Notes: generated by a model from the letters alone, not told the origin. A stretch of 64,000 nt of DNA from an uncultured Planctomycetota bacterium (GCA_964409935.1 CAYPFP010000010.1:376-64375); one strand, 5' to 3'; shown: positions 1-50,244, counted from the stretch's first letter. Numbers and translations: made by a program.

Positions 1-462
1 TAGGTCGCCAAGCGCCACCCCCGACTCGTTCCCCCTGTTAAGGATGTGGCCAACTTCAACTGGAAGTAAGTGGCGAGCGTGGTAGGAGACGACCGGGAGC
101 TTTCGCACCGCTGTCGTAAATGAGAACGACGTAGCCGTGTGCTCGAAGGTTCCGAGCATGCGCACCTTGTACGTGTAGCTAAACATTTTCTGCTTGTCGC
201 GGTCGGAGATCTCGCGCTCGGCGATTCGCGCATAGTGGACAGCGACGAGAGTCTTGTCTTGCGATCGGAAGAGGGGATCCTCGTCATAGACCTCGGCCTC
301 GACGCGCGCAAGGTACTTGGTTCCTCCTTCACTTTTCGGCGTGAGGACGATGAAGTCCCCCAGCTTGGGGGACGCCTTTGCGTCCTCGTACGAAGAATAG
401 ATCAGGAGCGCATCCTCCGTGGTCTTCTGGCCGTAAAGGACGCCAAAATCTTTTCGCTCCAC
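1..462 (-). CDS. herA: HerA-like ATPase, N-terminal HAS-barrel part only; the gene continues past the left window edge
   Basis: My own minus-strand translation from GTG at 462 stays open to position 1: VERKDFGVLYGQKTTEDALLIYSS..KLGDFIVLTP..KYLARVEAEVYDE..GVALGDL. The G-x-V-x-GQ-x-TT-x-EAL-I opening followed by a GDFIVL strand matches the N-terminal barrel of HerA-type ATPases. AGGGAG lies directly after the nurA stop, with about 7 nt between it and the GTG. The Walker motifs would lie outside the window. The ORF is absent from the track because it has no stop inside the window. Confidence 0.6.
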   Translation of the reverse strand, partial: MERKDFGVLYGQKTTEDALLIYSSYEDAKASPKLGDFIVLTPKSEGGTKYLARVEAEVYDEDPLFRSQDKTLVAVHYARIAEREISDRDKQKMFSYTYKVRMLGTFEHTATSFSFTTAVRKLPVVSYHARHLLPVEVGHILNRGNESGVALGDL

Positions 463-475
463 GTTGGGTCTCCCT

Positions 476-1717
476 TCAGAAGCGCGAGTGCAGGTCTATG
501 AAAAGATTCTCGATGTCTGTGTGATCCATCTGCTGCGATGCATAGAGAGCATTCTTTACGCGAGCTATGACTTCCTTCTTGAAGTCCCCGGTCAAGGACA
601 CTAGGTTGTGGGCTTCGACCAGCGGATATGGGTAACCTAAGATGTAGTGTTCCTGCGTAGTTGCCGTGAGTGCATACATGATCTCGGAAACCAACTTTGT
701 GTCCCGTGTGAGGTCCTTGTTTGCGATTCCGGGGATGCAGTCATAGATGTTAAGGTCGCATATAAGCCAATCGTAGTTCTGAAGCTTCTCAACGTAGTCC
801 AAGCGCGCCGAAAAGAATAGACCGAACCCGCGGCCCCCAATAATGTCCTTCTTGGCGAACATATTGTTGCCACCACCCGAATAGGCAGCTTCCAGTACGT
901 CATCGCGCACCTCGAAGTAACAGCAAAGCTTCTGGCGTTTCGGGTCTGCCGCCTTGAACGGATAGCTCGGCTTTAGTTTCGACTGAAGGTAGTTATCAAT
1001 CTTGGAATAGGTATAAGCAAGTTCGGTCTTAACGGGGTTCTGCTTAGTAACGCCAACCACACGCACCCCCTTCGTGTGGAACAGATGGCCAAGCTTGACA
1101 AGGTACCCCTGCTTGATATTCAAGCTGCGAAGGGCGCCATCGCGAAGGATGAAATCACCAGCGTCCACGGAACCGTTCATGATGATGTCGCAAAGCGAGG
1201 CCCATTCGAGGACCTCCTGGCAGAAGCCGAGCAGCGTCGAACTGTTGTCAATGATTACGTCCTTTCCGTATGGAAAGACCTCCTCCGGTTTGTCACCGAA
1301 AAAGCTGATCAGCGACGCCACGACCGGCAGCGCTAGAAACTCGTCATAGATGCGGGCCAAATCATGCTCGCTGAGCACGAGCATCCTGGTGGCGTGGAAA
1401 AGCTTCCCCAACACCACCGGATCGGCACTGGTGTTCAGTCTTACTTGCTGGCCATTGCGGAAGCATACGTACCCAGCCTGGTAGAAGCACAGCGAAACTC
1501 CATTGTAAAACGTATGGCTGTTGCGGCTACCATCAATAGCGTAGAAGCGTACCTCCGGGGCGTCGATCTGGTCGAAGGGCATGATCTCGAAGATCTGTGG
1601 CGTTTCCAGGTTTTCCGGTACTCCGACGACAGGGATTTTGTAGTCCTTGTTGGTTTTCGAGTGGATCTCGGCCGCCACACCGTTGATCACATCGTCCGGG
1701 ATGCTGAATGTCTGCAT
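476..1717 (-). CDS. nurA: NurA-domain nuclease
   Basis: Track ORF 476..1747. I prefer ATG at 1717 (AAGGGA 8 nt upstream); 1747 is a TTG. The motifs FYAIDGSRN and FILRDGALRS are the two characteristic DG(S/A) motifs of NurA-family nucleases. G+C is clearly lower than in the neighbours. herA follows 13 nt downstream. Confidence 0.7.
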   Translation of the reverse strand: MQTFSIPDDVINGVAAEIHSKTNKDYKIPVVGVPENLETPQIFEIMPFDQIDAPEVRFYAIDGSRNSHTFYNGVSLCFYQAGYVCFRNGQQVRLNTSADPVVLGKLFHATRMLVLSEHDLARIYDEFLALPVVASLISFFGDKPEEVFPYGKDVIIDNSSTLLGFCQEVLEWASLCDIIMNGSVDAGDFILRDGALRSLNIKQGYLVKLGHLFHTKGVRVVGVTKQNPVKTELAYTYSKIDNYLQSKLKPSYPFKAADPKRQKLCCYFEVRDDVLEAAYSGGGNNMFAKKDIIGGRGFGLFFSARLDYVEKLQNYDWLICDLNIYDCIPGIANKDLTRDTKLVSEIMYALTATTQEHYILGYPYPLVEAHNLVSLTGDFKKEVIARVKNALYASQQMDHTDIENLFIDLHSRF

Positions 1718-2012
1718 GTCAACGTCCCTTGTTCTGCGCTGGTTCAACGTGAACTGGACAGTCGCCTCTCACCAAGAGCAATCACGAGGTGCTGGGGCTC
1801 CGCCCCAGACCCCGGAGTTTTCTGAGGCATAGGGGGACTCTGAGCATCCGCTGAGGGCGCACAGGGAGTGGGGGAGTCGGTGGGCTCCCCCGTGACGAAT
1901 GCTCGTCGTCCCGGTCGGTTATCCCTGGCGGGGCGCTCTCCAGCGCAGCCCGCTTCCGCTTCGCCAACCGATGATAGTTTGGCCTGTTCCCTTCGTTCGG
2001 TCAAGTATTTTT

Positions 2013-2049
2013 CTACGGGCCGGCGGCAACGACGGCTCGGCCCGCCCGT
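2013..2049 (-). terminator. Candidate terminator hairpin after the lyase-like gene
   Basis: On the minus strand, directly after the TGA: ACGGGCGGGCC..GCCGCCGGCCCGT, an imperfect GC stem followed by AGAAAAATA. Confidence 0.3.
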
Positions 2050-3278
2050 CACAGGCCGCGCACCATGTACGCCTGCAAGAGGCCCGATTCGTCGGAATTG
2101 AAGAAGCCCGTCGTCCCGTCGGGCGAGAGGAAGGGGTGGATGTGGGTATCCTTCCGGCAGGTCGAGCGCGGGGTGAGGAGGTAGCGCCAGTTCTCCAGCG
2201 CCGCCTCGCCGCCGCGGCCGAACTCCGCCGCGTAAATCCTGCCGCCCCGGTCAAAGGGCTTTGAGTCGGTGATGAGGCGCTTCCCGGCGATGTCGGTGGC
2301 GAAGTGGTGGAATTGCGGACTCCTGAACCCCGCCGACAAATCTACGCGCCGGCCGCCGGGGGAGCGCAGGCCGACGTGCCCCGCATGCGGGACGCCGCGC
2401 CCCTGGATGAGCTGCGCCTCAGCCGGTTTCCGCGTGCTGGTGCTCGTGATCGCGCAGGCGCTGCGCCCGCGCCAGCATTGATGCCCCTGGCAGAACTCGT
2501 TCCCGTCGCGGCCCCACGGCAGGTTGCGGAAATCCGACCCGTCGTCGCGGACGAGGTGGATGTCCGCCCCGTCGCCGCCCACGAGCCGCGTGATGGTTCC
2601 CTGCGCGTCGGCGACGTTGTCGTGATTCTCCTGCACCATGATGTCGCGAGCTTCCGCCGCGTCGCAGGAGCGGCAGTACTGCGGGTGGATGTTGCACCAC
2701 GTCTGGCCGTGCAGCGCCAGGTTCACAGCCGCCTTCTCCAGGTTGAACACCATCAGCCCCCACGGCGCGTCCTCCGTCGTGCCATCGCCCAGAAAGGCCG
2801 CGACCGCCAGCCGCTTGCCGTCGGACGAAATCGTCGAGAGCGGATAAATCCGGCTGCACCGGAACTTGACGCCCGGCAGCGGCGTGTCCAGCGCCAGGAT
2901 CGTCCGCCGGTCGGCGCCGTCGAGGTTGACGCGCTTGAGGAGCAGGCGTCCTCCGCCAGGGACGGTTTCGTCCACGAAGTAGTAAAGGCCCTTGTCGTCG
3001 GGCGAGACCGCAGGCGCGGTGACGCCGGCCTCATGCGTCAGCGGATGCAGCGTGCCGTTGTCGGCCAGGTCGCACAGCAGGTACTGGTGGCGCGTGTCGC
3101 CCTGGATGCCGCAGTGCGCCGTCGCCGCGCGGTGAAGCACGAACCGCCGCGAGTCCGATGTGAAGATTTGCGCTTCCATATATATATGCGAACCGGGGAC
3201 GTCCGTCTCCGTGGTGAGTTGAAACACCTCGATGCCCTTGGGCGAATCGGCGTCCAGCAGGTCGGGGCGAAGTTTCAA
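2049..3278 (-). CDS. Oligogalacturonate-lyase-like beta-propeller protein (TolB-like C-terminus)
   Basis: This is the C-terminal 409 codons of track ORF 2049..3719. I set the start at TTG 3278, which is preceded by AGGAGGAGAG at 8-nt spacing. The upstream 147 codons are R/S/C-rich and overlap the divergent gene. The sequence shows the pattern FQLTTETDV..HIYMEAQIFTSDSRRFVL ... HIHPFLSPDGTTGFFNSDESG.LQAY, which is typical of this family. Confidence 0.65.
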   Translation of the reverse strand: MKLRPDLLDADSPKGIEVFQLTTETDVPGSHIYMEAQIFTSDSRRFVLHRAATAHCGIQGDTRHQYLLCDLADNGTLHPLTHEAGVTAPAVSPDDKGLYYFVDETVPGGGRLLLKRVNLDGADRRTILALDTPLPGVKFRCSRIYPLSTISSDGKRLAVAAFLGDGTTEDAPWGLMVFNLEKAAVNLALHGQTWCNIHPQYCRSCDAAEARDIMVQENHDNVADAQGTITRLVGGDGADIHLVRDDGSDFRNLPWGRDGNEFCQGHQCWRGRSACAITSTSTRKPAEAQLIQGRGVPHAGHVGLRSPGGRRVDLSAGFRSPQFHHFATDIAGKRLITDSKPFDRGGRIYAAEFGRGGEAALENWRYLLTPRSTCRKDTHIHPFLSPDGTTGFFNSDESGLLQAYMVRGL

Positions 3279-7509: not shown

Positions 7510-7917
7510 TTATTTTTTTGGCCTGCGGATGAGAAGCACGGGGATGGTCGTGGCGTGGCGAACCGAGGTGGCGACGCTGCCGAGGAGAAAGTCCCTGAAC
7601 GGACCGTGCCCGTGCGTGGCCATCGCGATGAGGTCGCAGCCGAGCGCTTCGGCGTTTTGCAGGATGGCCGCAACGGGATCGCCTTTGGCCACCACCGTGG
7701 CGGATTTCACCGCAAGGGCGGCCAGCTTCTGCCGGGCCGATTCGAGATGTTCCTCGATCCTGGCCGCGCCGTCCTGACGAAGGGCGCCGGAGGTTTCGGC
7801 GACGGCGCGCAGGAGGATGACCTCGGACTGATGAATCCTGGCCAGTTGCGCGACATGTTCGAGCACCGCATCGTCAACGGGCGAGCAGTCCAGGGGCACA
7901 AGTATCTTCCTGTACAT
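7510..7917 (-). CDS. Universal stress protein (UspA family)
   Basis: MYRKILVPLDCS..., ..DLIAMATHGHGPFRDFLLGSVATSVRHATTIPVLLI is the classic USP ATP-binding G-x2-G-x9-G(S/T) region. GGAGAGG RBS. Confidence 0.9.
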   Translation of the reverse strand: MYRKILVPLDCSPVDDAVLEHVAQLARIHQSEVILLRAVAETSGALRQDGAARIEEHLESARQKLAALAVKSATVVAKGDPVAAILQNAEALGCDLIAMATHGHGPFRDFLLGSVATSVRHATTIPVLLIRRPKK

Positions 7918-15066: not shown

Positions 15067-15155
15067 TCACTTGGGTGCTTCCACATTGTACTCCAGGATG
15101 ACGCCGACGGCCTCGGCAAGCCGGTCGTGGAGGAGCCTGAAGGCTTCGGGGGCCG
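15067..15155 (-). pseudogene. Orphan 3'-end fragment of the Zn-dehydrogenase gene at 16016..16999
   Basis: It encodes ..APEAFRLLHDRLAEAVGVILEYNVEAPK*. The intact gene ends ..APEAFRLLHDRLAEAVGVILEYEATS*. No dehydrogenase body lies upstream of this fragment. Confidence 0.8.
15092..15155. repeat. Left copy of a perfect 64-bp direct repeat
   Basis: tccaggatgacgccgacggcctcggcaagccggtcgtggaggagcctgaaggcttcgggggccg is identical to 16035..16098. Weaker homology continues about 20 bp to the left, with a 6-bp indel. Confidence 0.95.
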
Positions 15156-15166
15156 GAGGACAGGGG

Positions 15167-15200
15167 GAGATGGCGGGGAAACGCAAACCCATGCCATCTC
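15167..15200. repeat. Inverted repeat at the cassette end
   Basis: gagatggc - 18 nt - gccatctc lies between the small-ORF stop and the left direct repeat. It could be a terminator or a recombination site. Confidence 0.4.
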
Positions 15201-15211
15201 GTCTGAAACCA

Positions 15212-15388
15212 TCATGAGACAGGTTTGCTGCTGCGGCAGACCAAGTCTTCTTTCCGAACAAGTCGTCCGCGATGCGCGCGCTCCTTTCGCTGCAGGCGTT
15301 TCACGATCTTGCGAATATCATATGAACACTCTTTTGCGATCTGCCGGCGGATCGCATGAATTTCCTCAACGATCGGATCTTTCCACAT
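15212..15388 (-). CDS. Small basic protein (58 aa), putative partner of the PIN toxin
   Basis: My own translation: MWKDPIVEEIHAIRRQIAKECSYDIRKIVKRLQRKERAHRGRLVRKEDLVCRSSKPVS*. AAGGAG lies 6 nt upstream of the ATG and overlaps the PIN stop codon. The ORF is too short to appear in the track. Confidence 0.6.
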   Translation of the reverse strand: MWKDPIVEEIHAIRRQIAKECSYDIRKIVKRLQRKERAHRGRLVRKEDLVCRSSKPVS

Positions 15389-15398
15389 AATCGGCTCC

Positions 15399-15881
15399 TT
15401 ACGGGACGTCCAGGAGTTCCTCCGGGGTCACGATAATCGGCGTCCACCGCCCTATTTCCTGATTCAGGGTCTGCAACCGGCGAATCACGACTCCATTCGC
15501 CAGATGGGCGCAGTTCCATGTCAGGAGATAGTCCATCTCGTAGACTGCCGCGCAGGCCAGATGAATCGTGTCTAGTCTGGCCTTCTCGGGCAAGCCCAAC
15601 CCGTGGGCATAGCGCTCCGCCAACAGGGCGACTTCCTCCGTGATGGCCAGAAGCGGGATGCCCTCGACGAACGGCATCCGCCTGGCGGCGCCCGCGCGAT
15701 CGCCGGCGCTGATCTCCTCGATCACGGCTTCGGAAATATAAAGCGCAAAACCAGGCCGCACGTCCCGCCACCAGACATGCGTGACCTGTTGATGGGCCGC
15801 GACGATCAGGTCTCGACTGGGATTGGCCGCAAGGTAACTTGGGATCGTTGACTCAAGATATAGACGGAATTTGGCTGGCAT
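15399..15881 (-). CDS. PIN-domain (VapC-like) putative toxin
   Basis: This is the last 160 codons of track ORF 15399..17090, starting at ATG 15881: MPAKFRLYLESTIPSYL.., ..ISEAVIEEI.., ..RLDTIHLACAAVYEMDYLLTWNCAHLAN.. The spacing of acidic residues and the W-N-x-x-H-(I/L)-x-N motif match a PIN subfamily. Confidence 0.7.
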   Translation of the reverse strand: MPAKFRLYLESTIPSYLAANPSRDLIVAAHQQVTHVWWRDVRPGFALYISEAVIEEISAGDRAGAARRMPFVEGIPLLAITEEVALLAERYAHGLGLPEKARLDTIHLACAAVYEMDYLLTWNCAHLANGVVIRRLQTLNQEIGRWTPIIVTPEELLDVP

Positions 15882-15937
15882 TGCCGGGTCCGCCCACAAA
15901 CTCGCGCAGATTATCGTGAAGCCCTGCCTAACTGCGG

Positions 15938-15967
15938 ATGATATCAAACCGGGGAGCCACACGTCAA
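15938..15967 (-). promoter_or_regulatory. Candidate promoter internal to the cassette
   Basis: Minus strand: TTGACG - 18 nt - TATCAT, about 57 nt upstream of the PIN ATG. Confidence 0.4.
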
Positions 15968-16015
15968 CGAGCATGTTTTTCTGAACAGGGGCCGCCTTGA
16001 ATCGAGAGCCCGGCG

Positions 16016-16999
16016 CTACGAGGTTGCTTCGTATTCCAGGATGACGCCGACGGCCTCGGCAAGCCGGTCGTGGAGGAGCCTGAAGGCTTCGGGGGCCGCG
16101 CATAGCGGGAAGCGGTGCGTGATCATCTCGGCGACGCGCACGCGCCCGTCGAGCATCATGGCCACGGCGGCCTGCAGAAGCTCGGCGCGTCTCTCGGGGC
16201 AGCGGATGCCGCCGACGATGAGCTTGCCCTGCGACTTCGAGGCGTCGAGGGGCAGCGGCGATTCCTGGTACAGGCCGACGACCTGGATGACGCCTTTGGC
16301 CTTGACCATGTCCTGCGCCTGCGCGAAGGATTTCACGCCGGCGGGGCCGCCCACGCAGTCCATGACGACGTCGGCGCCCTTGCCGCCGGTGGAGGCCTTG
16401 ACCGCCTTGACGGGTTCTTCCCCGGAGACGTTCACAACAAGGTCGGCGCCGAGCCGCTGCGCGAGGGCGCACCGCATGTCCAGAGCATCCACGGCGATGA
16501 CCTTTCCCGGCTTCATCTCGCGCACGGTCTGGAGGCACAGGAGTCCCACGAGTCCCTGGCCGAGGACGACGACGGTATCGCCGGGCTGTATCTGGGCGCT
16601 GCGTGCCCAGCCGACGGCGCTGGTGGCCAGGGGGATGAAGACGGCGTGGTCGTCGCTGACGGCGTCGGGCAGCTTGGCGTACGCGGCGCCGTCGAGCCAG
16701 TCCCTCTTGCCCACGCCGTACTCGGCATGGGGGGCGACGACCATGGCGCGGTCGCCCACGGCAATGTTGGGGACGTCCTTGCCAGCGGCTTCGACGACGC
16801 CGGCGGCGGAGTACCCCATGATGGAGGGGTCCACGGCGGTTGTCTTGCGGTATCGGCCGCCGATCTCCGAGCCGCGGCTGATGAGCGAGCGGCGGATGCG
16901 CACGAGGATCTCGCGATCGGTGATCTGCGGGATATCGGCCTCCTCGACGACGACGTTGCCGAAGCCTTCGCGTTTGGCCACACGCTTCATTTTTTGCAT
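16016..16999 (-). CDS. Medium-chain Zn-dependent alcohol/polyol dehydrogenase (MDR family)
   Basis: This is the last 327 codons of track ORF 16016..18892, from ATG 16999: MQKMKRVAK..ILVRIRRSLISRGSE.., Rossmann motif VVVLGQGLVGL. Confidence 0.88.
   Translation of the reverse strand: MQKMKRVAKREGFGNVVVEEADIPQITDREILVRIRRSLISRGSEIGGRYRKTTAVDPSIMGYSAAGVVEAAGKDVPNIAVGDRAMVVAPHAEYGVGKRDWLDGAAYAKLPDAVSDDHAVFIPLATSAVGWARSAQIQPGDTVVVLGQGLVGLLCLQTVREMKPGKVIAVDALDMRCALAQRLGADLVVNVSGEEPVKAVKASTGGKGADVVMDCVGGPAGVKSFAQAQDMVKAKGVIQVVGLYQESPLPLDASKSQGKLIVGGIRCPERRAELLQAAVAMMLDGRVRVAEMITHRFPLCAAPEAFRLLHDRLAEAVGVILEYEATS
16035..16098. repeat. Right copy of the perfect 64-bp direct repeat (inside the dehydrogenase 3' end)
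   Basis: Identical to 15092..15155. Confidence 0.95.
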
Positions 17000-17089
17000 G
17001 GGCAACTCCAGGTTGTTTTTGGGATGCCGTGAGTATACCATAAATAAGGATCGTCGCGTTGAGGCATTCGACGGGTGCGGGAACGAACA

Positions 17090-18784
17090 ATGAAGCGCGT
17101 CGGGGTTCTGATGTGTTTGTGGCTGGCGGCGGTAGCCGCGCCGGCGGCCGAGAAAGACCGGGGGGCGGCGCTCATCAAGAACCGGCAGTGGAAGGAGGCG
17201 GAGGCGCACTACGCGGCAAGGCTGGTGGAGTTTGCCGAGGCCAAAGGGCCTAAGACCGAGGCGCAGTTGACCAACCTGGTCTTCGCCTACGACGTGGCGC
17301 GGTACTTCGGGCAGATGTCGCCGGACGATGTGGCGAGTCTGGGGGACTGGCTGCTGTCGAAGCGGGACTTCACGGCGAAGCTCCTGCAGGCCTTCAAGCC
17401 GGAGGACTCGCCGGCGCGGGCCGCCCGCGTGCTGTGGCAGCTCCGCAGGAGAGTCGGAGAGGACGACGTTTTGCGCTATGAGGGCTTGGCGATCGCGCAT
17501 GCGGTGGTTTGGGACGCCGAGAAGGGACCGTCGCACCGCTTTGAGGCCGCCGACAGCTTCGAGTATTACATCAAGAACGGGGGACGAATGGTCTTCGACG
17601 TGGCGCAGCTTCCGTGCCAGGCGGCGATCTTTTTGGCGTGCGCCGAGGCCACGCCGGCGGAACGGGTCTGGGCGCTGGGCAAGTGCATGGAGCCGCAGCA
17701 GTTGTCCCAGATCTACCATTCGCTCGAATACGACTGGGGGTACGTGGCGGGCGCCCCGAAGAAAATATCCCGGTTCGATTACACGCTGCCCAACCTGCGC
17801 AAGATCGGCGGGGTGTGCGTGGAGCGGGCCTACTACGCCGCCAACGTGGCGCGCGCGGCGGGGATTCCGGCGGTGACGGTGTACGGTCGCGGCCTCAGCG
17901 GCGTCGGGCACGTATGGACGGGTTACATTCAATCCCTGGACGCGAACCAGTATGTCTGGAATCTGGGCTGCGGGCGCTACGACGCGGAGCGCTATTACAT
18001 GGGCTCCACCCGCGACCCCCAGACGGGCAAGGGCATCTTCGATTATCAGGCGGCGATGAGAACGCGCGAGTGCCGCCTGCCGGTCGAGAAGCTCAAGGCG
18101 TCGGGCGCCTGGCTGTGTCTGGCCGAAGTCCTGGAGAAGGCCGGCAAGCCCGACCTGATGAAGGGGGCGCTGGCGCAGGCGCTCAAGAGCAATCGTTTCA
18201 ATCTGGCGGCGTGGGGACACCTGACCCGCCTGTGCCGCGCGGGCGCCCTGGGGACGGAGTACGCCGACGAGATCATCGCGGAGGCGATCAAGACGTTCCC
18301 CGACGAGGCGGAGTTCTGCTTCGGGGTGTACGCCGCGCTGCTGGAGGCGGTGCCGAAGGAGGCGTTCGCGCAGCGCTCCCGCCTCTACCGGCAGGGCGTG
18401 ACCTTCTTCAAGTTCCGGCCCGACCTGACGGTGGCCATGGCGCGCGCGTATGGGGACTACCTGCTGGAAGCCGACAAGAGGGATGAGGCGTACAAGGTGT
18501 ATCATGAGACGATCAGGACGTACATGGACGATCCCCGGCTCGTGGTGGACCTGGCCATCAAGGTCACGGACAAGCAGACCGAGAGCGACGACCTCGACAA
18601 GTCCGTGAAGCTGTTGAAGACCCTGATCGGGCGGAGCCGGAAGCCGGCGTACAGCGACCCGCTGGCCAACCATTCGGCCTGGCGCCGGCTGCAAAAATGC
18701 CTGCGAGGCGTCTTCGAGAAGGCGGGGGACACGGAAGGGGCGCAGCAAATCGAGGCGGAGTTCGCGAAGTTCAAACGCAAGTGA
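17090..18784 (+). CDS. Secreted transglutaminase-like cysteine-protease-fold protein with helical-repeat C-terminus (paralogue 1)
   Basis: I prefer ATG 17090; the track start 17075 is a GTG. Signal peptide MKRVGVLMCLWLAAVAAPAAE. Putative Cys-His-Asp core: GGVCVERAYYAANVARAAGIPA..GHVWTGY..STRDPQTG. Confidence 0.85.
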   Translation: MKRVGVLMCLWLAAVAAPAAEKDRGAALIKNRQWKEAEAHYAARLVEFAEAKGPKTEAQLTNLVFAYDVARYFGQMSPDDVASLGDWLLSKRDFTAKLLQAFKPEDSPARAARVLWQLRRRVGEDDVLRYEGLAIAHAVVWDAEKGPSHRFEAADSFEYYIKNGGRMVFDVAQLPCQAAIFLACAEATPAERVWALGKCMEPQQLSQIYHSLEYDWGYVAGAPKKISRFDYTLPNLRKIGGVCVERAYYAANVARAAGIPAVTVYGRGLSGVGHVWTGYIQSLDANQYVWNLGCGRYDAERYYMGSTRDPQTGKGIFDYQAAMRTRECRLPVEKLKASGAWLCLAEVLEKAGKPDLMKGALAQALKSNRFNLAAWGHLTRLCRAGALGTEYADEIIAEAIKTFPDEAEFCFGVYAALLEAVPKEAFAQRSRLYRQGVTFFKFRPDLTVAMARAYGDYLLEADKRDEAYKVYHETIRTYMDDPRLVVDLAIKVTDKQTESDDLDKSVKLLKTLIGRSRKPAYSDPLANHSAWRRLQKCLRGVFEKAGDTEGAQQIEAEFAKFKRK

Positions 18785-18798
18785 ACCGGAGCGGAATT

Positions 18799-19074
18799 GT
18801 GAATCGGGCAAGATGGTGGGTTTGCGCGGCGTTTGTCCTGGGGTCCGGCCTGGCTGAGGCGGCCGACGTTGACCTGCCGTTGGACGGCGCATGGCGGCCG
18901 TGGGTCGAGGCGGCGGCGAAGGAGAAGGCGGAGAAATTTGAGGGCGTTTTCAGCGCAGAAGGCGCGGACCTGCGTGCGGCGGGCAGGGGGCGGGCGATGG
19001 ATGTCATCTCCATCACGATAGGGCCGCGCGATATCGGCGTCGTCTCCCGGCTGGAGGCGGCGCAAGGCAGGTGA
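18799..19074 (+). CDS. Possible small secreted protein (91 aa)
   Basis: GTG at 18799 with GGAG 7 nt upstream: VNRARWWVCAAFVLGSGLAEAADVDLPLDGAW.. The N-terminus looks like a signal peptide and third-position G+C is high. The stop overlaps the next gene's start region. No family was recognised. Confidence 0.4.
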   Translation: MNRARWWVCAAFVLGSGLAEAADVDLPLDGAWRPWVEAAAKEKAEKFEGVFSAEGADLRAAGRGRAMDVISITIGPRDIGVVSRLEAAQGR

Positions 19075-19079
19075 GTCAT

Positions 19080-20777
19080 ATGGTCAAGGCGATCCGTGCG
19101 GCGGCGTGCGCATGGCTGCTTTCGGGCGCAACGGCGCTCGCGGCGGGCGGCGCGGCGGACGAGCCGCTTGTCAAAGAGCGGCGCTGGAAAGAGGCGCAGG
19201 ACGCCTACGCCCTGAAGCTCCTGGACTTCGCCGAGGCCAAAGGCCCGAAGGCGGACAAGGAGCTTGCACGGCTGGCCCTGGTCTACAACCTGGGCAGGTT
19301 CTTCGGGCAGATGGACGGCGAGGACGCCACGGCCCTCACCGAATGGCTCCTGGGCGAGACGAAGTTCACGGCGGCGCTGCTGGACGCCTTCGCGCCGGAG
19401 GACTCGCCGGTGCGGGCGTTTCGTGTGTTGGGGCAGCTCCGGAAGCGATTCGGCGAACGAAAACTCCTGAACTGCGCGGGCCTGGCCATCGCCTTCGCCG
19501 TGGTGTGGGACGGTGAGGAGCCGGTCTCGAAGAAGTTCGACGCCTGCGACAGCTTCGCCTATTACGTCTCGCCCGGCTCGCCGATGGCGTTCGACGTGCA
19601 GAACCTGCCCTACGAGCCGGCGCTCTTTCTGGCGTGCGCCGAGGCGGCCCCCGAAGAGCGCGCGTGGGCGTCGCAGAAGTACAAGCGCCCCAGGACCATG
19701 AGCGCGGTCTATCATGGTCCGCCCTACGACATGGAGTTCCTCTTCGGCAAACCCAAGAAGATTGACCGGCAGGAGTATACGCTGGAGAATCTCCTCAAGT
19801 ACGGCGGCGTCTGCGGCGACCGGGCCTACTTCTGCGCGAATGTCGCGCGTTCGTGGGGCATCCCGGCGGCCCGCATCTCGGGCGTGGGGGAGCGCGGCGG
19901 ACACGCCTGGACGGGCTACATCAGGCCCGGTACGCAAGGGCGTTACGTTTGGGAACTGGGCTGCGGCCGCTACGAATACGACCGCTACTACACGGGGTCC
20001 ACGCGGGACCCCCAGACCCGCAAGCGCATCAACGACTACGAGTTGAGCATGCGCACACTGGGCTGCAGCCTGAGCGAGGACAAGGTCAGAATCGCCGGCG
20101 GCTACGAGCTTCTGGCCGGCCTCCTGGAGCAGCGCAAACAGTTCCCGCTGGTCAGATGGGCCGTCGAACAGGCGCTCAGGAACAACCGCTTCAACCTCTC
20201 GGCGTGGGAGCGGGCTACCCGCTTGTGCAAAGAGGGGGTCTTCGACGCCGCCTACGCCGACCGCCTCATGGACCTGGCGCTCGAAAAGTTCCCCGACGAA
20301 CTGGACTTCTGCTACGGCGTCTTCACGGCCATGATGGCCACGGTGCCCAAGGAGCAGGCCCAACGGCAGAAGCGCCTTTTCCTTCAGGCCCGGAATTTCT
20401 TCAAGGCGCGGCCGGACCTTACCTCTTCCATCGGAGCGGCGTACGGCGACTATCTGCTGGAGACCGGCAAGAAGCGCGAGGCGTACGACGTCTACCATGA
20501 CACGATCCGCGCGCACATGAGCGATCCGCGGCTCGTGACCGACATCGCGATCAAGGTCTCGCAGAAGCGCCTCGAAGGCGACGAGCCGAAAAAGGCCGTC
20601 ACGCTCCTCGCCGCGCTCCTGCGCTATGCCGTCAAGCCCCCCTACGGCGACGCCTTTGCCAAGCACTCCGCCTGGTACCGGCTTCAGACGTGCCTCAAGG
20701 GCGTCTACGAGGAGACCGGCGACAGCAAGGCCGCCGCAACCATCGAGGCCGAACTGGCGAAATACAAGCGCAGATGA
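19080..20777 (+). CDS. Secreted transglutaminase-like protein (paralogue 2)
   Basis: Same architecture as 17090..18784 and alignable end to end (more than half the residues identical by eye). Core: GGVCGDRAYFCANVARSWGIPA..GHAWTGY..STRDPQT. Signal peptide MVKAIRAAACAWLLSGATALAAG. Confidence 0.85.
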   Translation: MVKAIRAAACAWLLSGATALAAGGAADEPLVKERRWKEAQDAYALKLLDFAEAKGPKADKELARLALVYNLGRFFGQMDGEDATALTEWLLGETKFTAALLDAFAPEDSPVRAFRVLGQLRKRFGERKLLNCAGLAIAFAVVWDGEEPVSKKFDACDSFAYYVSPGSPMAFDVQNLPYEPALFLACAEAAPEERAWASQKYKRPRTMSAVYHGPPYDMEFLFGKPKKIDRQEYTLENLLKYGGVCGDRAYFCANVARSWGIPAARISGVGERGGHAWTGYIRPGTQGRYVWELGCGRYEYDRYYTGSTRDPQTRKRINDYELSMRTLGCSLSEDKVRIAGGYELLAGLLEQRKQFPLVRWAVEQALRNNRFNLSAWERATRLCKEGVFDAAYADRLMDLALEKFPDELDFCYGVFTAMMATVPKEQAQRQKRLFLQARNFFKARPDLTSSIGAAYGDYLLETGKKREAYDVYHDTIRAHMSDPRLVTDIAIKVSQKRLEGDEPKKAVTLLAALLRYAVKPPYGDAFAKHSAWYRLQTCLKGVYEETGDSKAAATIEAELAKYKRR

Positions 20778-28990: not shown

Positions 28991-29022
28991 CCCTCCCTTC
29001 TCCCTTGGTGCCAGGCACCAGG
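28991..29022. repeat. REP-like element, single arm
   Basis: ccctcccttctcccttggtgccaggcaccagg sits in the 46-bp gap between the RayT stop and the nuclease start. Confidence 0.7.
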
Positions 29023-29033
29023 AACTCCAGGAA

Positions 29034-29738
29034 CTACCGCCTCCCCCCACGCACGTGGCCCACACACATGATCCCCTCGTCCAGTTCTGTGTAGCGGACG
29101 GCCTTGCCTGCGCCCAAGCCGAACCTCTTCATCATCTGCCTGACAAAACGGGCTGTGCCTATGAAATACTCGTTCGCCAGCGAAACCGCCGGACGTGCGA
29201 CGTCTTCCCGCAGCAGGCGCGCATATTGCTCATAGCGCGAGGCCGGTTCGCTTCCCAAGCTCAGGTATGACGGATGGAAGTCCAATTCCGTCTGGTCTTC
29301 CGCGCGCAAGGCTCGGTGTCCGCACCACTTGTGGTCCAGTGGGGAAGACACCATCCCAGCGCGAACTGGGTTGAGATCAAGATAGGTCATGCACCTCAGA
29401 AAGTAGGTCTCTTCTTCGATGATGGTGCTTTGGAAGCGATTTTCCCACAGATGCCCATGCCGCCCCGAAAGCCTGTTGAACCTACGGCTGAAGGTGTGCG
29501 CAATCCAGTGCATGGCTCTTGACAGAGTATCTTCTTGCGGCACCGCAAACAGCAGGTGAACATGATTGGTCATCAAGCAGTAGTTGTACAGCGAAATCTT
29601 AAACCTTGGCCTAGCCTCTTGAAGGATGGTGCCGAACAACTGGAACGGAACGTCGCTGAAAAGGAACTCTCGATTGTTGCAACGCAATGTGGCATGGTGG
29701 ATTGCCCCCGCATACGAGAATCTCGGTAGTCTTGGCAT
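29034..29738 (-). CDS. REP-associated tyrosine transposase (RayT, IS200/IS605 Y1 HUH family)
   Basis: YCLMTNHVHLLF (HUH motif) and MTYLDLNPVRAGMV (catalytic Tyr helix). GGGAGG RBS. Confidence 0.88.
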   Translation of the reverse strand: MPRLPRFSYAGAIHHATLRCNNREFLFSDVPFQLFGTILQEARPRFKISLYNYCLMTNHVHLLFAVPQEDTLSRAMHWIAHTFSRRFNRLSGRHGHLWENRFQSTIIEEETYFLRCMTYLDLNPVRAGMVSSPLDHKWCGHRALRAEDQTELDFHPSYLSLGSEPASRYEQYARLLREDVARPAVSLANEYFIGTARFVRQMMKRFGLGAGKAVRYTELDEGIMCVGHVRGGRR

Positions 29739-29811
29739 AGCCCGCCTCCCGGTCAGCTTCTCAGGGCGCGAAACATCTTGACCGGACGCCCATTAGAATG
29801 TCAAGCCCTTT

Positions 29812-29869
29812 CCCCCTCCTTCTTTCTTGGTGCCAGGCACCACTGGTGCCTGGCACCAAGGGGGGAGGC
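29812..29869. repeat. REP-like perfect 17-bp inverted repeat (1-nt spacer) with extended GC-rich arms
   Basis: ccccctcc ttctttc CTTGGTGCCAGGCACCA c TGGTGCCTGGCACCAAG gggggagg. Confidence 0.85.
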
Positions 29870-48456: not shown

Positions 48457-50244
48457 ATGCAGGTTCGCTTCCGGCTCATTGTTCTGGCGGCGGTTCCGCT
48501 TCTGCCGCTCATGTGGTGCCTGTGGGTCTTGACGGGCTGTCTTCCCCGCCAGGCCCCCCCGCCCAGCGAGATTATCAACAAGAACGATCGCGCCCAGATG
48601 GCGCTCGTCCCCGCCGGCGAGTTCCGACGCGGCTCGGACACCGGCCCCGACCCTGAACGCCCCCAGCGCGCCATCGCCCTGCGCGCCTTCTACATTGACA
48701 AGTACGAGGTGACGAACGACCAGTACCGCAAGTTCGCCGCCGCCACCGGACGCCCCGAGCCGCAGGGCTTCGGGTTCGACGGCAACCGGCGCGTGACCGA
48801 TTTCAGGCCCTGGCGCGACAGCCGTTTCAACAAGCCCGATCAGCCTGTCGTGTGCGTGAGCTGGGAGGACGCCGCCGCCTATGCCGCTTGGGCCGGCAAG
48901 CGCCTCCCTACGGAGGCGGAGTGGGAGAAGGCGGCGCGCGGGCCGCTCGCGCTCGGCTTCCCCTGGGGCAACGACGGGCCTCTGCGCGGCGGCGCTTACC
49001 TCGCCAACTACGATCCTTCTTCCACCGTCGAGGGCGCGTCCGCCGACGCCGACGGCTACGAGCTCACGGCCCCCGTCGGGCGGTTCAGGGACGGCCGGAG
49101 TCCCTATGAGGCGTTCGACATGGCGGGCAACGTCGCCGAGTGGTGCGCCGACTGGTACGACCCTAACTTCTACTTCCGCAGCCCGCTCTCGGATCCGCAG
49201 GGGCCTGCCGAGGGGAAGTTCCGTGTCATCCGAGGCGGCTCCTGGGGCAGTGTCGAAGGCGACATTCGCTGCGCCGCCCGCAGCGGCGGCGCTCCGGACT
49301 TCCGCCACTGGTACATCGGTTTCCGCTGCGTCAAAGACGCCGAGCCGCCGCAACCCAGGTCGAGTGTCTGGAGGCGAGTGAGCGTTTCGCGGGCGCCGGA
49401 ACCCGCTCCCGAACCTCCCCCTGCCGAGAAAGCGCCCCCCGCCCCGGAGCCTCCGGCACGTCCGTTTTCCCTTCCCGCCGGCGGCGACCTGCCCATCGAG
49501 AAAGCCTCGCCCAGGGACGGCGCCACGCTCGTCCTCATCCCCGCCGGCGAGTTCCCGATGGGGCATGAGGAAGGCGACAACGACGAGAAGCCCGTGCGCC
49601 GGATATTCCTGCCGTCCTTCTACCTGGACAAGTATCCCGTCACCAACGCCCAGTACAGGAAGTTCGTCCAGGAGACAGGCAGGCCCGAGCCTGTGGGGTA
49701 CGGGTACAGGGACGGACACTTTGTCGAGGATTTCAGGCCGTGGCAGGATTCGCGCTTTGATCATCCGCGCATGCCGGTCGTCTGCGTAAGCTGGCAGGAC
49801 GCGATGGACTATGCGCTCTGGGCCGGACGCCGCCTCCCCACCGAGGCGGAATGGGAGAAGGCCGCCAAGGGTCTCTTCGCCTCGACGTATCCCTGGGGCA
49901 ACACCGCGCCTTCATCGGTCAAGGCGCGCTACGGTCTCGACCAGGAAACGGGCTTCCCGGCCATCGTGGGCGGACACCCCGCCGGGGCGTCCTCTTATGG
50001 CTGCATGGACATGGCGGGCAACGTCTGGGAGTGGTGTCTGGACTGGTACGCGGAGACCACGTACCAATACGGCCCCCTCATCTCTCCCCTTGGCCCCAGG
50101 GAGGGCGAGGCCAGGGCGCTGCGCGGCGGCTCCTGGGCCAACGGCCCCGCGCTGTTGCGCTGCTCGGCCCGCTTCTGCCAGCCGCCCCCCCGCAAGACCT
50201 TCTACATCGGTTTCCGCTGCGCCGCCGACGTAGGGGCGGAATAG
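48457..50244 (+). CDS. Lipoprotein with two tandem FGE-fold (SUMF1/EgtB/PvdO family) domains
   Basis: Lipobox LTGC. Each half has PAGEF..G.., YIDKYEVTN.QYRKF, VCVSWEDA..YA.WAGKRLPTEAEWEKAA, GNV.EWC.DWY, RGGSW and IGFRC. Confidence 0.88.
   Translation: MQVRFRLIVLAAVPLLPLMWCLWVLTGCLPRQAPPPSEIINKNDRAQMALVPAGEFRRGSDTGPDPERPQRAIALRAFYIDKYEVTNDQYRKFAAATGRPEPQGFGFDGNRRVTDFRPWRDSRFNKPDQPVVCVSWEDAAAYAAWAGKRLPTEAEWEKAARGPLALGFPWGNDGPLRGGAYLANYDPSSTVEGASADADGYELTAPVGRFRDGRSPYEAFDMAGNVAEWCADWYDPNFYFRSPLSDPQGPAEGKFRVIRGGSWGSVEGDIRCAARSGGAPDFRHWYIGFRCVKDAEPPQPRSSVWRRVSVSRAPEPAPEPPPAEKAPPAPEPPARPFSLPAGGDLPIEKASPRDGATLVLIPAGEFPMGHEEGDNDEKPVRRIFLPSFYLDKYPVTNAQYRKFVQETGRPEPVGYGYRDGHFVEDFRPWQDSRFDHPRMPVVCVSWQDAMDYALWAGRRLPTEAEWEKAAKGLFASTYPWGNTAPSSVKARYGLDQETGFPAIVGGHPAGASSYGCMDMAGNVWEWCLDWYAETTYQYGPLISPLGPREGEARALRGGSWANGPALLRCSARFCQPPPRKTFYIGFRCAADVGAE

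Follow-up and report, generated by a model that had tools for sequence, protein, structure and literature searches.

Insertion of a putative toxin-antitoxin cassette flanked by two copies of a dehydrogenase gene 3′ end in an uncultured Planctomycetota bacterium

Introduction

Prophage e14 and phage 21 integrate into the 3′ end of the icd gene in E. coli; e14 is about 15 kb long and has its own integrase. Insertion-duplication of the Campbell type, known mainly from plasmids and engineered constructs, results from a single crossover of a circle with a homologous segment. The pdif modules of Acinetobacter plasmids are small units, often toxin-antitoxin, that are bounded by sites and moved by XerC/XerD encoded elsewhere.

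CIMEs are att-flanked elements without recombination genes (PMC5704250), and both CIMEs and their tandem accretion at the 3′ end of a target gene have been described (Pavlovic 2004; Bellanger 2011; reviewed in PMC5704250). Among integron cassettes, toxin-antitoxin pairs with their own promoter form a known class, found in sedentary chromosomal integrons (PMC13108822). The entry and movement of chromosomal toxin-antitoxin modules are nevertheless still described as unclear (PMC13617665, 2026).

The locus described here lies in a window of 64,000 nucleotides (64 kb) from an uncultured Planctomycetota bacterium. A two-gene cassette separates a dehydrogenase gene from the gene downstream, and the end of the dehydrogenase coding sequence is found again on the far side of the cassette. 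As with CIMEs, the insert is without integration or transfer genes, and additions at the same site appear as arrays parted by gene-end copies (locus L138 of the same cassette family; the window compared with locus L147). CIMEs, however, are decay products of ICEs or IMEs that need a known cognate integrase, whereas no integrase is known here; their repeats are usually tens of bp and fixed for each integrase, whereas those found here are 30-200 nt and come from unrelated target genes; and the unit here is cassette-sized, with almost no spacer. The likeness to e14 would consist in an alternative gene 3′ end that is carried in and restores the ORF, the displaced end remaining as a pseudogene fragment on the far side, but the window insert is 0.9 kb and holds a putative toxin-antitoxin pair only. 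With Campbell insertion the locus shares the order gene..X-insert-X, a length of X that suits RecA, and reversibility by recombination between the X copies. The integron cassettes are likewise compact two-gene units with their own promoter, and PIN-family members related to the one described here do lie in attC arrays elsewhere; the window copy differs in that it has no attC, array or integron integrase, and its repeats are coding sequence of the neighbouring gene with no hairpin potential. The pdif modules differ in having 28-bp Xer sites in alternating orientation, on plasmids, and not direct copies of a chromosomal gene 3′ end. The arrangement had been called unusual in an earlier note on this DNA, but CIMEs (PMC5704250) and self-promoted toxin-antitoxin integron cassettes (PMC13108822) were already known. 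The locus is best read as a variant of the att-flanked, recombinase-less mini-elements already described.

Results

The direct repeat and its two copies

All genes at the locus are on the minus strand (Table 1). Identical 64-mers are located at 15092-15155 and 16035-16098, and the ungapped match reaches 68 nt with a single mismatch, a synonymous GAG/GAA difference in a Glu codon. A 63-nt probe from the repeat, with up to 3 mismatches allowed, found only these two sites in the 64 kb, and none in 100 shuffles.

The right copy belongs to the 3′ end of an intact dehydrogenase gene. The gene call of the collection is 327 aa, Pfam matches are to ADH_zinc_N (2.5e-18), ADH_N and Glu_dehyd_C, and the C-terminus aligns with those of orthologues that are 69-83% identical; the nearest genome for the dehydrogenase locus is a Planctomycetota MAG. 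The left copy is an orphan that reads ..APEAFRLLHDRLAEAVGVILEYNVEAPK up to a stop codon at 15067-15069. An 11-nt gap with a Shine-Dalgarno-like stretch, GAGGGAA, separates the stop from the ATG of the downstream gene (15055), and this layout parallels the junction of the dehydrogenase stop and the next gene in L147. The earlier note had described the perfect 64-bp repeat, the true gene end and the orphan tail in these same terms and had proposed a search of the genome for other copies of the 64-mer; its description is confirmed, and there are no other copies in the 64-kb window. Its term “glycosidase-like” for the downstream gene stands in part: one relative is named arabinan endo-1,5-alpha-L-arabinosidase and a weak GH32 match is found in relatives, but the window protein itself has no Pfam match.

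Table 1. Features of the locus, in coordinates of the 64-kb window
Feature	Position	Strand	Remarks
Secreted glycosidase-like gene, 497 aa	13562..15055	-	Relatives 59-69% identical; now parted from dehydrogenase by the insert
Orphan tail and stop	15067..15087	-	AAT GTG GAA GCA CCC AAG TGA (NVEAPK, stop)
Left, orphan repeat copy	15088..15155	-	From repeat comparison and probe search
Insert between repeat copies, 875 nt	15156..16030	-	Promoter, toxin gene, partner gene and short spacers only
56-nt spacer, partner stop to left repeat	15156..15211	-	8-bp inverted repeat GAGATGGC..GCCATCTC
58-aa partner gene	15212..15388	-	MWKDPIVEEIHAIRRQIAKE..; conserved behind PIN gene
Predicted VapC-like PIN-fold toxin gene, 160 aa	15399..15881	-	From predicted structure and Foldseek
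Sigma-70-like promoter (candidate)	15938..15967	-	TTGACG-18-TATCAT, extended -10 TG
Present dehydrogenase tail and stop	16016..16030	-	GAA GCA ACC TCG TAG (EATS, stop); differs from orphan tail
Right, gene-attached repeat copy	16031..16098	-	Encodes AAPEAFRLLHDRLAEAVGVILEY
Zinc-dependent (MDR-type) dehydrogenase gene	16016..17032	-	ORF from ATG at 17032; ends ..GVILEYEATS, stop

The two copies show 0 differences in the 64 nt of the core, as against flanks that are unalignable or strongly diverged. Homology of the two tails beyond the core, which had been claimed earlier, is suggested by short shared motifs (GAAGCAxCC in both tails, RFP..C..APEAF at the protein level), but by shuffling the likeness outside the core is not significant (upstream p=0.49, tails p=0.17). 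What looks like a diverged incoming tail may be no more than unrelated sequence of the insert. The repeats do not resemble attC hairpins and have no attC-like structure (z about 0.4).

Content of the insert

The G+C content of the insert is 0.52-0.58, compared with 0.65-0.72 in the flanks. The promoter match is the only one in 1.4 kb, where 0.2 would be expected. It is followed, 51 nt upstream of the toxin ATG, by the heptamer GTTAGGC, which is the consensus R′ core sequence of integrons and may have arisen by chance, the probability of a GTTRRRY within 150 nt being about 1 in 7.

Searches of the 160-aa product against Pfam, NCBIfam and a PDB sequence profile gave no PIN assignment. The AlphaFold2 model of the protein (pLDDT 92.9, pTM 0.88) has VapC1, VapC4, VapC20 and Shigella VapC as best Foldseek matches in the PDB (E down to 1.6e-4, TM-score up to 0.71), and the product is predicted to have a PIN-domain fold of the VapC class. 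The PIN toxin of the earlier note is thus supported by modelled structure, not by sequence profiles. There are 1049 relatives, several of which are named VapC family toxin by their sources. Among 33 relatives the candidate active-site residues E10, D24 and D104 are invariant and E56 is near-invariant; at the position of the usual fourth acidic PIN residue these relatives have an invariant Asn, in TWNCxH.

In L001, L063, L091, L138 and L154 the PIN gene is followed by a gene for a partner of 58-59 aa whose N-terminus reads (M)WKDPIVEE.., and by TBLASTN the partner gene was found in most of 80 loci. No family match was obtained for it in Pfam, NCBIfam or PADLOC. The partner is presumed to be the antitoxin, and the two genes probably function as a toxin-antitoxin pair; the order is toxin first, unlike that of classical vapBC. 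No terminator was predicted on the minus strand of the 56-nt spacer. It should be noted that the lower G+C, the candidate promoter and the 58-aa ORF had all been pointed out earlier and hold up, and the ORF is conserved behind the PIN gene in relatives. A terminal inverted repeat, also reported, had to be discarded: its 15-nt arms (15428-15442 and 15905-15919) are not terminal, one of them is inside the PIN gene, and in 5 kb there are 24 pairs of this kind, this one included.

An empty site in a relative

In L147, a dehydrogenase gene 82.6% identical to that of the window is followed, after 43 nt, by an orthologue of the downstream gene (68% identical), without a cassette. Since the gene pair is uninterrupted there, the window cassette is an insertion that has split the dehydrogenase-glycosidase pair, as had been proposed, and L147 provides the empty site for which a comparison with relatives had been suggested. 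A second, orphan dehydrogenase 3′ end is present in L147 after the glycosidase-like gene (71 nt, 88.7% identity, with the central 38 nt identical), and the glycosidase-like gene is 43 and 80 nt from its flanking copies. The orphan carries alleles (..AFKLL..EY, stop) that differ from those of the resident gene (..AFRML..ECD, stop). Its inner boundary is within about 7 nt of that of the window repeat, with a different cargo and in a comparison of two cases only. Judged from these sequences, the dehydrogenase 3′ end seems to have served as a site more than once.

Logan contig L001 (972 bp), from a separate dataset, has 900 nt identical to the window (15165-16064) and confirms both inner junctions, dehydrogenase tail to cassette and cassette to left copy. 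Three differences are clustered at the inner edge of the left copy, versus none in the 900 nt, as is expected of a variable conversion or crossover edge. Its two ends are one and the same 30-mer, located within the repeat; a circular or tandem form could account for this, and so could a graph break at a repeat in the chromosome. L001 was the only same-lineage sequence, and no circular or empty form of the exact element was seen. The earlier interpretation as site-specific integration into a gene 3′ end divides into two parts: the insertion footprint is borne out by the empty site of L147, but a crossover at a fixed att core is not. The tract edge differs in L001, and target genes elsewhere are unrelated.

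Recurrence of the footprint in the cassette family

The cassette family is widespread, and by BLASTN it is found between direct repeats in 28 of 82 loci. Exact repeats of at least 23 nt bracket 19 of 83 loci and only 1 of 1074 random positions (a background of about 0.1%), an approximately 200-fold excess. About two thirds of the family loci, including two finished replicons, are without a flanking repeat.

The flanking repeats consist of the last 30-200 nt of the neighbouring gene in at least five other loci, which lie in other genomes, and the genes are unrelated. They are lepA in L091 (117 nt, 117/117 identical, with a 2-nt spacer between repeat and cassette and a sharp inner boundary), moaA in L111 (about 30 nt), a TPP enzyme gene in L086 (125 nt, 91%), a membrane-protein gene in L078 (197 nt, 85%), and a WD40 gene in L138, where the 3′ end is repeated at least four times between five toxin-antitoxin cassettes. 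The inter-cassette copies of L138 are closer to each other than to the resident gene end. The duplicated segment ends 0-3 nt past the stop codon in four of the five (L091, L111, L078 and L086), as expected if an incoming copy restores the ORF. Both in the window (64-68 nt) and in L111, L091, L086 and L078 (30-197 nt), the repeats consist of target sequence, and their length suffices for homologous recombination.

The cases at gene 3′ ends hold toxin-antitoxin genes only, with spacers of 2-120 nt, and thus a cassette-sized mobile unit is needed. Canonical attC sequences (GCCTAAC...GTTAGGC) are found behind family members in L099 (an array of five), L132, L133, L097, L098, L107 and L065, the last with a weak IntI-like match upstream. 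Across loci, GTTRRRY upstream shows no coding-strand excess (16 coding versus 13 antisense, of 78).

Searches for a recombinase

No tyrosine or serine recombinase was detected in the insert or the 64 kb, which agrees with the absence of an integrase stated earlier; probes of IntI1 and XerD gave no match at E<0.5 in the 64 kb. No attC was found in 15067-15211, in either repeat or in the 64 kb, nor any attC-like repeat families in the window, and no donor locus was identified. The window has a single transposase gene, IS200-like (Y1), at a distance of 13 kb and with REP-like palindromes of its own. A transposon or IS was rejected as the source of the insert: there are no terminal inverted repeats, and the duplicated stretch measures 64-68 nt in the window and 30-200 nt in other loci, the window repeat, as had been argued, far exceeding what a transposase leaves at its target. 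Nor were remnants of a larger ICE or IME found, the insert holding the promoter, the PIN gene and its partner with no other element genes.

Discussion

The arrangement is best explained, at about even odds (a probability of roughly 0.5), by a single crossover, within the 3′ end of the dehydrogenase gene, with DNA that came in with a second version of this gene end. A self-promoted two-gene VapC(PIN)-type toxin-antitoxin cassette of about 875 bp and foreign composition would have been added behind the dehydrogenase in Campbell topology, by one reciprocal crossover within the last 70-90 nt or so of the ORF, between the chromosome and an incoming, presumably circular, DNA with the cassette and its own dehydrogenase 3′ end. 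The dehydrogenase would keep a complete frame with the new tail ..EYEATS, and the copy ending ..EYNVEAPK would be orphaned before the glycosidase-like gene. The enzyme may have been an unlinked integrase that uses the dehydrogenase 3′ end as att site, the insert then being a CIME-like, trans-dependent mini-element capable of tandem accretion. Alternatively, host homologous recombination may have acted on a patch of at least 64 nt. With 30-200 nt, the repeats reach or exceed the minimal length for RecA-type recombination, and these lengths would fit homology-dependent recombination and a site-specific crossover equally well. Later gene conversion between the copies would leave the centre identical while the edges drift, and the toxin-antitoxin pair would make the insert hard to lose. 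Some observations speak against this reading: no recombinase or donor locus was found, to our knowledge no enzyme outside integrons moves a unit of cassette size, the repeats are unlike attC hairpins, and about two thirds of the family loci have no flanking repeat. Nor do we know of a natural source for cassette circles that would carry the final 30-200 nt of any given host ORF up to its stop codon.

The main competitor of the single crossover is a de novo long target duplication, in which a staggered double-strand break or template switching captured the cassette with no incoming copy. In the template-switch form, synthesis would leave the template just past the stop, copy the cassette and re-enter 30-200 nt upstream, with the resident 3′ end duplicated as a result. 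The identical copies and sharp inner boundary of L091 would suit such a process, and its 117/117 copies fit a fresh duplication of resident sequence just as well as they fit an incoming copy; the abrupt end of the likeness at the inner edge of the window core, the difference in repeat length from locus to locus (30-200 nt) and the absence of a recombinase point the same way. However, the divergence between copies is uneven and mosaic-like in the window, in L147 and in L138, a pattern that an incoming copy with conversion fits better. A target duplication does not predict these allelic or mosaic differences, nor an outer boundary 0-3 nt past the stop in four unrelated loci, nor the near-coincident inner boundaries of the window and L147, and it is considered rather unlikely.

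A broader reading, which is tentative and to be regarded as doubtful, is an integron-like addition of cassettes in which the last 30-200 nt of a resident ORF, up to the stop codon, take the place of the hairpin attC. Each cassette would travel with a copy of a gene end, insert behind the gene without disrupting it, and build arrays such as that of L138. The cargo would be mostly toxin-antitoxin pairs, but also the 1.5-kb glycosidase-like gene of L147, and movement would depend on a trans-acting recombinase or on homology-guided copying of the target end.

The footprint is concrete and repeatable, i.e., a cassette behind a resident gene whose terminal 30-200 nt up to the stop are repeated beyond it, with no recombinase near, and it bears on how cassettes move without a recombinase of their own. 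If an incoming gene end and one crossover are involved, addictive cassettes could settle harmlessly at the 3′ ends of housekeeping genes such as lepA and moaA and build arrays there. A new enzyme, or a homology-guided process, would make this a new class of cassette mobility parallel to integrons, and the integron-like reading, if true, would provide a general, recombinase-less route for the spread of chromosomal toxin-antitoxin pairs. For annotation, orphan 3′-end fragments beside toxin-antitoxin pairs may serve to mark a recent insertion and define its boundaries.

The insert could also be the remnant of an integrase-bearing island at the dehydrogenase 3′ end, from which deletion bias left only attL, the toxin-antitoxin genes and attR, and would then be a CIME strictly speaking. 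The literature describes CIMEs and tandem accretion at target gene ends (PMC5704250), and a recent model has islands erode to toxin-antitoxin-only islets (PMC13617665). Elements that restore an ORF typically have repeats ending with the stop codon, and the L138 array resembles accretion. Nevertheless there is no pseudogene debris, and the spacers between repeat and cassette are tiny (2 nt in L091; 56 nt and 134 nt in the window), as are those of the L147 glycosidase-like gene. Separate deletions would not trim so exactly every time, and the L091 repeats are still identical. Erosion of an island is thus judged improbable.

An integron integrase acting on a secondary, non-attC site could also have placed an integron cassette behind the dehydrogenase. 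This would agree with the canonical attC of the family in seven loci, where it is a bona fide integron cassette, with the GTTAGGC upstream of the window toxin, and with the self-promoted toxin-antitoxin cassettes typical of chromosomal integrons (PMC13108822). There is, however, no attC or attC remnant behind the window partner gene, no attC-like structure in the repeats and no integrase in the 64 kb, and the upstream GTTRRRY is no commoner on the coding than on the antisense strand. Moreover, insertion by an integron integrase does not duplicate the target. This origin is very unlikely. Equally unlikely is an old tandem duplication of the dehydrogenase 3′ end with the cassette landing between the copies later by chance. 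The orphan fragment of L147, which has no PIN cassette, might speak for it, but that orphan follows the glycosidase-like gene, and between the dehydrogenase and glycosidase-like genes of L147 there is no duplication; at least five other, unrelated loci also have a member of the family between ends of the neighbouring gene, and bracketing repeats are enriched about 200-fold.

Least probable of all is an assembly artefact, in which a free or tandem 943-bp circle was threaded into a chromosome that reads dehydrogenase, core, NVEAPK tail and glycosidase-like gene: the identical ends of L001, its passage from the shared segment to the EATS tail with no branch toward NVEAPK (by k=31 graph reasoning) and a 64-nt repeat longer than some assembler k values would allow it, but 64 nt is below ordinary read length and junction-spanning reads normally resolve such repeats, the architecture recurs in many independent assemblies, among them k=141 MEGAHIT contigs whose repeats are shorter than k (L063 and L147), and the end of L001 coincides with the point at which the two copies begin to differ, so that a dehydrogenase-side branch must exist in that sample too.

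The 64-nt direct repeat and its two copies

The pair of 64-mers described in the earlier note is indeed identical, and the copies lie 943 nt apart, start to start. A 63-nt repeat probe finds only these two sites in the 64 kb at up to 3 mismatches, and none in shuffled sequence. All local genes are on the minus strand. As had been proposed, the right copy is the 3′ end of a complete zinc-dependent dehydrogenase gene (Pfam ADH_zinc_N 2.5e-18, ADH_N, Glu_dehyd_C), whose C-terminus aligns with those of orthologues, and the left copy is an orphan gene end (..APEAFRLLHDRLAEAVGVILEYNVEAPK*) with its stop codon 11 nt ahead of the ATG of the 497-aa glycosidase-like gene. No third dehydrogenase-end fragment was found after the glycosidase-like gene of the window (p=0.26).

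The tails outside the core had been taken to be homologous but diverged. By shuffling, similarity beyond the 64-68-nt core is not significant (upstream p=0.49; tails p=0.17), and a GAAGCAxCC block that follows an offset of 6 nt, together with an RFP..C..APEAF pattern, is suggestive of homology there. If the tails are homologous, they differ at 5 of 15 nt and by an indel, compared with 0 of 64 in the core, and thus uniform drift is ruled out. The core is only 87% identical in an 82%-identical dehydrogenase orthologue. DNA folding gives z-scores of ~0 for the repeats of the window and of the cassette loci L091 and L138, i.e., no attC-like hairpin (attC being the integron cassette recombination site). 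There is no sign of a viral origin: neither the core nor the PIN family is found in IMG/VR.

Table. Coordinates and features of the window and of comparison loci
Locus	Position	Feature	Particulars
Window	15092-15155 / 16035-16098	Direct repeat, left / right copy	64 nt, identical
Window	15088-15155 / 16031-16098	Ungapped extent of repeat	68 nt, one mismatch
Window	15165-16064	Segment matched by contig L001	identical; crosses both inner junctions
Window	29034-29738, minus strand	IS200-like Y1 (HUH) transposase gene	Pfam Y1_Tnp 6.8e-14
Window	29005-29862	Lower-GC gap around transposase gene	REP-like palindromes TTGGTGCCAGGCACCA at 29005-29020, longer one at 29827-29862
Window	1-2048	Low-GC stretch	56% G+C
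Window	476-1747, minus strand	423-aa ORF	weak NurA-nuclease match (2e-05)
Window	17075-18784 / 19071-20777	Tandem paralogues	569 and 568 aa
Window	48457-50244	Internal direct repeats	~891-930 nt apart, GNV.EWC.DWY motif
L147	2331-2401	Orphan dehydrogenase 3′ fragment (..AFKLLHDRLSEAIGVILEY*)	71 nt, 88.7%; central 38 nt identical
L091		Neighbour lepA (LepA_C complete)	117 nt, both copies identical; cassette begins 2 nt past stop-proximal copy
L091	2162-2220 / 3135-3192	Partner-gene end / downstream host gene piece	83% identical, opposite strand
L111		Neighbour moaA (Mob_synth_C)	last ~30 nt, again after cassette
L086		Neighbour TPP-enzyme gene, convergent	125 nt, 91%
L078		Neighbour membrane-protein gene, convergent	197 nt, 85%
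L138		Neighbour WD40 gene	last ~105 nt, at least 4 copies, between five different toxin-antitoxin cassettes
L138	3765-7268	Run of cassettes	this PIN family, three other VapC pairs, one further small pair
L063	3726-6283	Three copies of 130-219-nt repeat	promoter-like GATTCCGCTTGAC motifs
L063	6316-6341 / 7637-7662	Inverted pair	larger pair, encloses 69-nt repeat around PIN cassette

The insert and its two genes

G+C is 52-58% in the 875 nt that separate the copies, as against 65-72% outside, which agrees with the lower G+C first noticed. The candidate promoter and 58-aa ORF proposed for the insert are both present; the promoter-like site (TTGACG-18-TATCAT with TG) is the only sigma-70-like match of the region, and the gene content is a 160-aa gene and the 58-aa gene. 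The terminal inverted repeats that had also been described are put down to chance. Nucleotide similarity to other loci ends at the ORFs and does not define the cassette edges.

Searches of Pfam, NCBIfam and PADLOC and a PDB sequence-profile search give no match to the 160-aa protein. Its relatives number more than 1000; NCBI calls several of them VapC family toxin, and precomputed PF01850 matches exist for a few. A structure model built from 33 relatives (pLDDT 92.9) has VapC toxins as its best PDB matches; the earlier PIN assignment is therefore right by predicted fold, not by sequence profiles. The 58-aa gene (MWKDPIVEE..) comes after the PIN gene in almost every relative examined, and the gene layout is unchanged in the closest PIN relative, P0122 (79% identical). 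Judged by gene order, the two form a conserved module with the putative toxin first, and we infer that the pair acts as a toxin-antitoxin system. There is no tRNA in the 64 kb, and no Rfam or PADLOC defence-system match was obtained.

The downstream gene and an empty site in a relative

The 497-aa protein itself has no Pfam match; its relatives share 59-69% identity with it, and one of them bears the name arabinan endo-arabinosidase. No same-species empty site was found, the exact dehydrogenase and glycosidase-like proteins being present solely on the 68-kb contig of the window. The nearest dehydrogenase relatives reach no more than 83% identity, and most relatives at greater distance are no longer syntenic: the downstream genes are others in L060, L061, L062 and L038, and the upstream genes in L144, L148 and L151. 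Two tandem paralogues in the window, divergent from the dehydrogenase, have an orthologue at the same position in L062.

Locus L147 (ENA ERZ27247683) has an 82.6%-identical dehydrogenase ending ..VILECD*, and 43 nt further on lies an orthologue of the downstream gene (68% identical). This is an empty-site arrangement, and it supports the earlier suggestion of a dehydrogenase-glycosidase pair split by the cassette. Beyond the glycosidase-like gene, L147 has a second dehydrogenase 3′ fragment, an orphan, so that dehydrogenase ends lie on both sides of this 1.5-kb gene. The orphan has its inner boundary within ~7 nt of the one in the window, and its allele states differ from those of the resident dehydrogenase gene.

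An independent contig of 972 bp, L001 (Logan, SRR11582140), shows three differences from the window, all grouped at the left copy's inner edge, with none across the other 900 nt. One and the same 30-mer from within the repeat forms both ends of the contig, whose path runs from the shared segment to the EATS tail (gene-attached copy) without a branch to the NVEAPK tail (orphan copy). These features are compatible with a circular or tandem cassette-plus-repeat, or with low coverage. The edge differences in L001 and the central identical block in L147 point to exchange between copies, by gene conversion or by crossovers at variable points, which would fit better than a static att core.

Integron members of the cassette family

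A metagenome scan with a PIN alignment yielded 80 loci. In 28/82 loci (17/47 with enough flank), direct repeats spaced 0.7-3.4 kb apart flank the cassette, and exact bracketing repeats of at least 23 nt occur at 19/83 loci, versus 1/1074 random positions in other genomic loci. Many of the repeat-bracketed PIN loci are true integron arrays. A canonical attC (GCCTAAC...GTTAGGC) follows the cassette in L099 (five sites), L132, L133, L097, L098, L107 and L065, the last with a weak integrase-like match upstream as well. Among the cassettes of chromosomal integrons, toxin-antitoxin pairs with their own promoter form an established class (PMC13108822). The frequency of GTTRRRY upstream of PIN genes does not differ from the antisense control.

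In L063, which has a 72%-identical PIN relative, long repeats sit among other toxin-antitoxin pairs (nucleotidyltransferase/HEPN-like, Xre-RES), and a separate 69-nt repeat, itself within a larger inverted pair, brackets the PIN cassette.

Gene 3′ ends duplicated behind unrelated genes

A second class of loci is non-integron and resembles the window: L091, L111, L086, L078 and L138. In each, the insert consists of toxin-antitoxin genes alone. In the first four, which are unrelated, the duplicated segment ends 0-3 nt past the stop codon of the neighbour gene. The L138 repeats are ~105-165-nt copies of the upstream gene's 3′ end, in subtypes with different 3′ continuations, and the inter-cassette copies are closer to each other than to the resident gene end. 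A 310-nt bracketing repeat in L154 (a long-read MAG) consists of an entire BrnT-partner gene in two copies (71% aa identity); this case is ambiguous and was left out of the count. In L091, a stretch of the partner-gene end resembles a downstream host gene piece.

Among the mechanisms considered, only an incoming copy selected to restore the open reading frame would precisely predict an outer boundary at the stop codon. That so precise a footprint recurs behind unrelated housekeeping genes was unexpected, and it makes the question of how chromosomal toxin-antitoxin cassettes are mobilised directly testable.

Possible mechanism

With X as the repeat, the topology is gene..X-cassette-X-downstream. 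It would arise if the chromosome and DNA bearing the cassette plus a copy of X underwent one reciprocal crossover inside X, and we give this reading a probability of about 0.5. It is favoured because the window, L147 and L138 all have mosaic or allelic copies, because the outer boundary is at the stop codon, as for an ORF-restoring copy, because the dehydrogenase end served on two occasions with almost coincident inner boundaries, and because X is long enough for homologous recombination. The crossover could be catalysed by an unlinked integrase, as for a trans-dependent mini-element similar to cis-mobilizable elements, CIMEs (PMC5704250), or equally by RecA. Of the att-type site-specific integration into a gene 3′ end first proposed, the insertion, the split gene pair and the lack of a recombinase stand, and site-specificity is a possibility. 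The known kin of the element are att-flanked recombinase-less elements and integron-type toxin-antitoxin cassettes, and the form in the window is a variant of both.

A long target duplication arising de novo, via a staggered break or template switching, would fit the perfect repeat of L091 but would leave the stop-codon rule and the allelic differences unaccounted for, and is unlikely. Somewhat less likely still is a larger island eroded to a toxin-antitoxin-only remnant (compare PMC13617665), given the tiny spacers and the complete lack of debris. Insertion by an integron integrase at a secondary site is very improbable; unlike integron cassettes, the window lacks an attC, and hairpin potential is absent from its repeats. 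An old duplication unrelated to the cassette is just as improbable, and an assembly artefact marginally more so.

Other mobility signs in the window

The absence of an integrase from the insert holds and extends to the 64 kb: integron integrase, XerD and resolvase probes give no match at E<0.5, a box-II motif search for a recombinase gives none, and Pfam assigns 27 further ORFs to ordinary metabolic genes, including the Planctomycete-typical DUF1571. A plasmid context was rejected, with two distant megaplasmid matches only, both without flanking repeats. The sole mobility gene is a transposase gene 13 kb off, in a unit unrelated in sequence to the cassette ends; with its palindromes it looks like a RAYT/REPIN-type unit.

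The low-GC stretch at the start of the window may be another foreign segment. Elsewhere, internal direct repeats with a shared motif suggest tandem formylglycine-generating-enzyme-like domains or genes.
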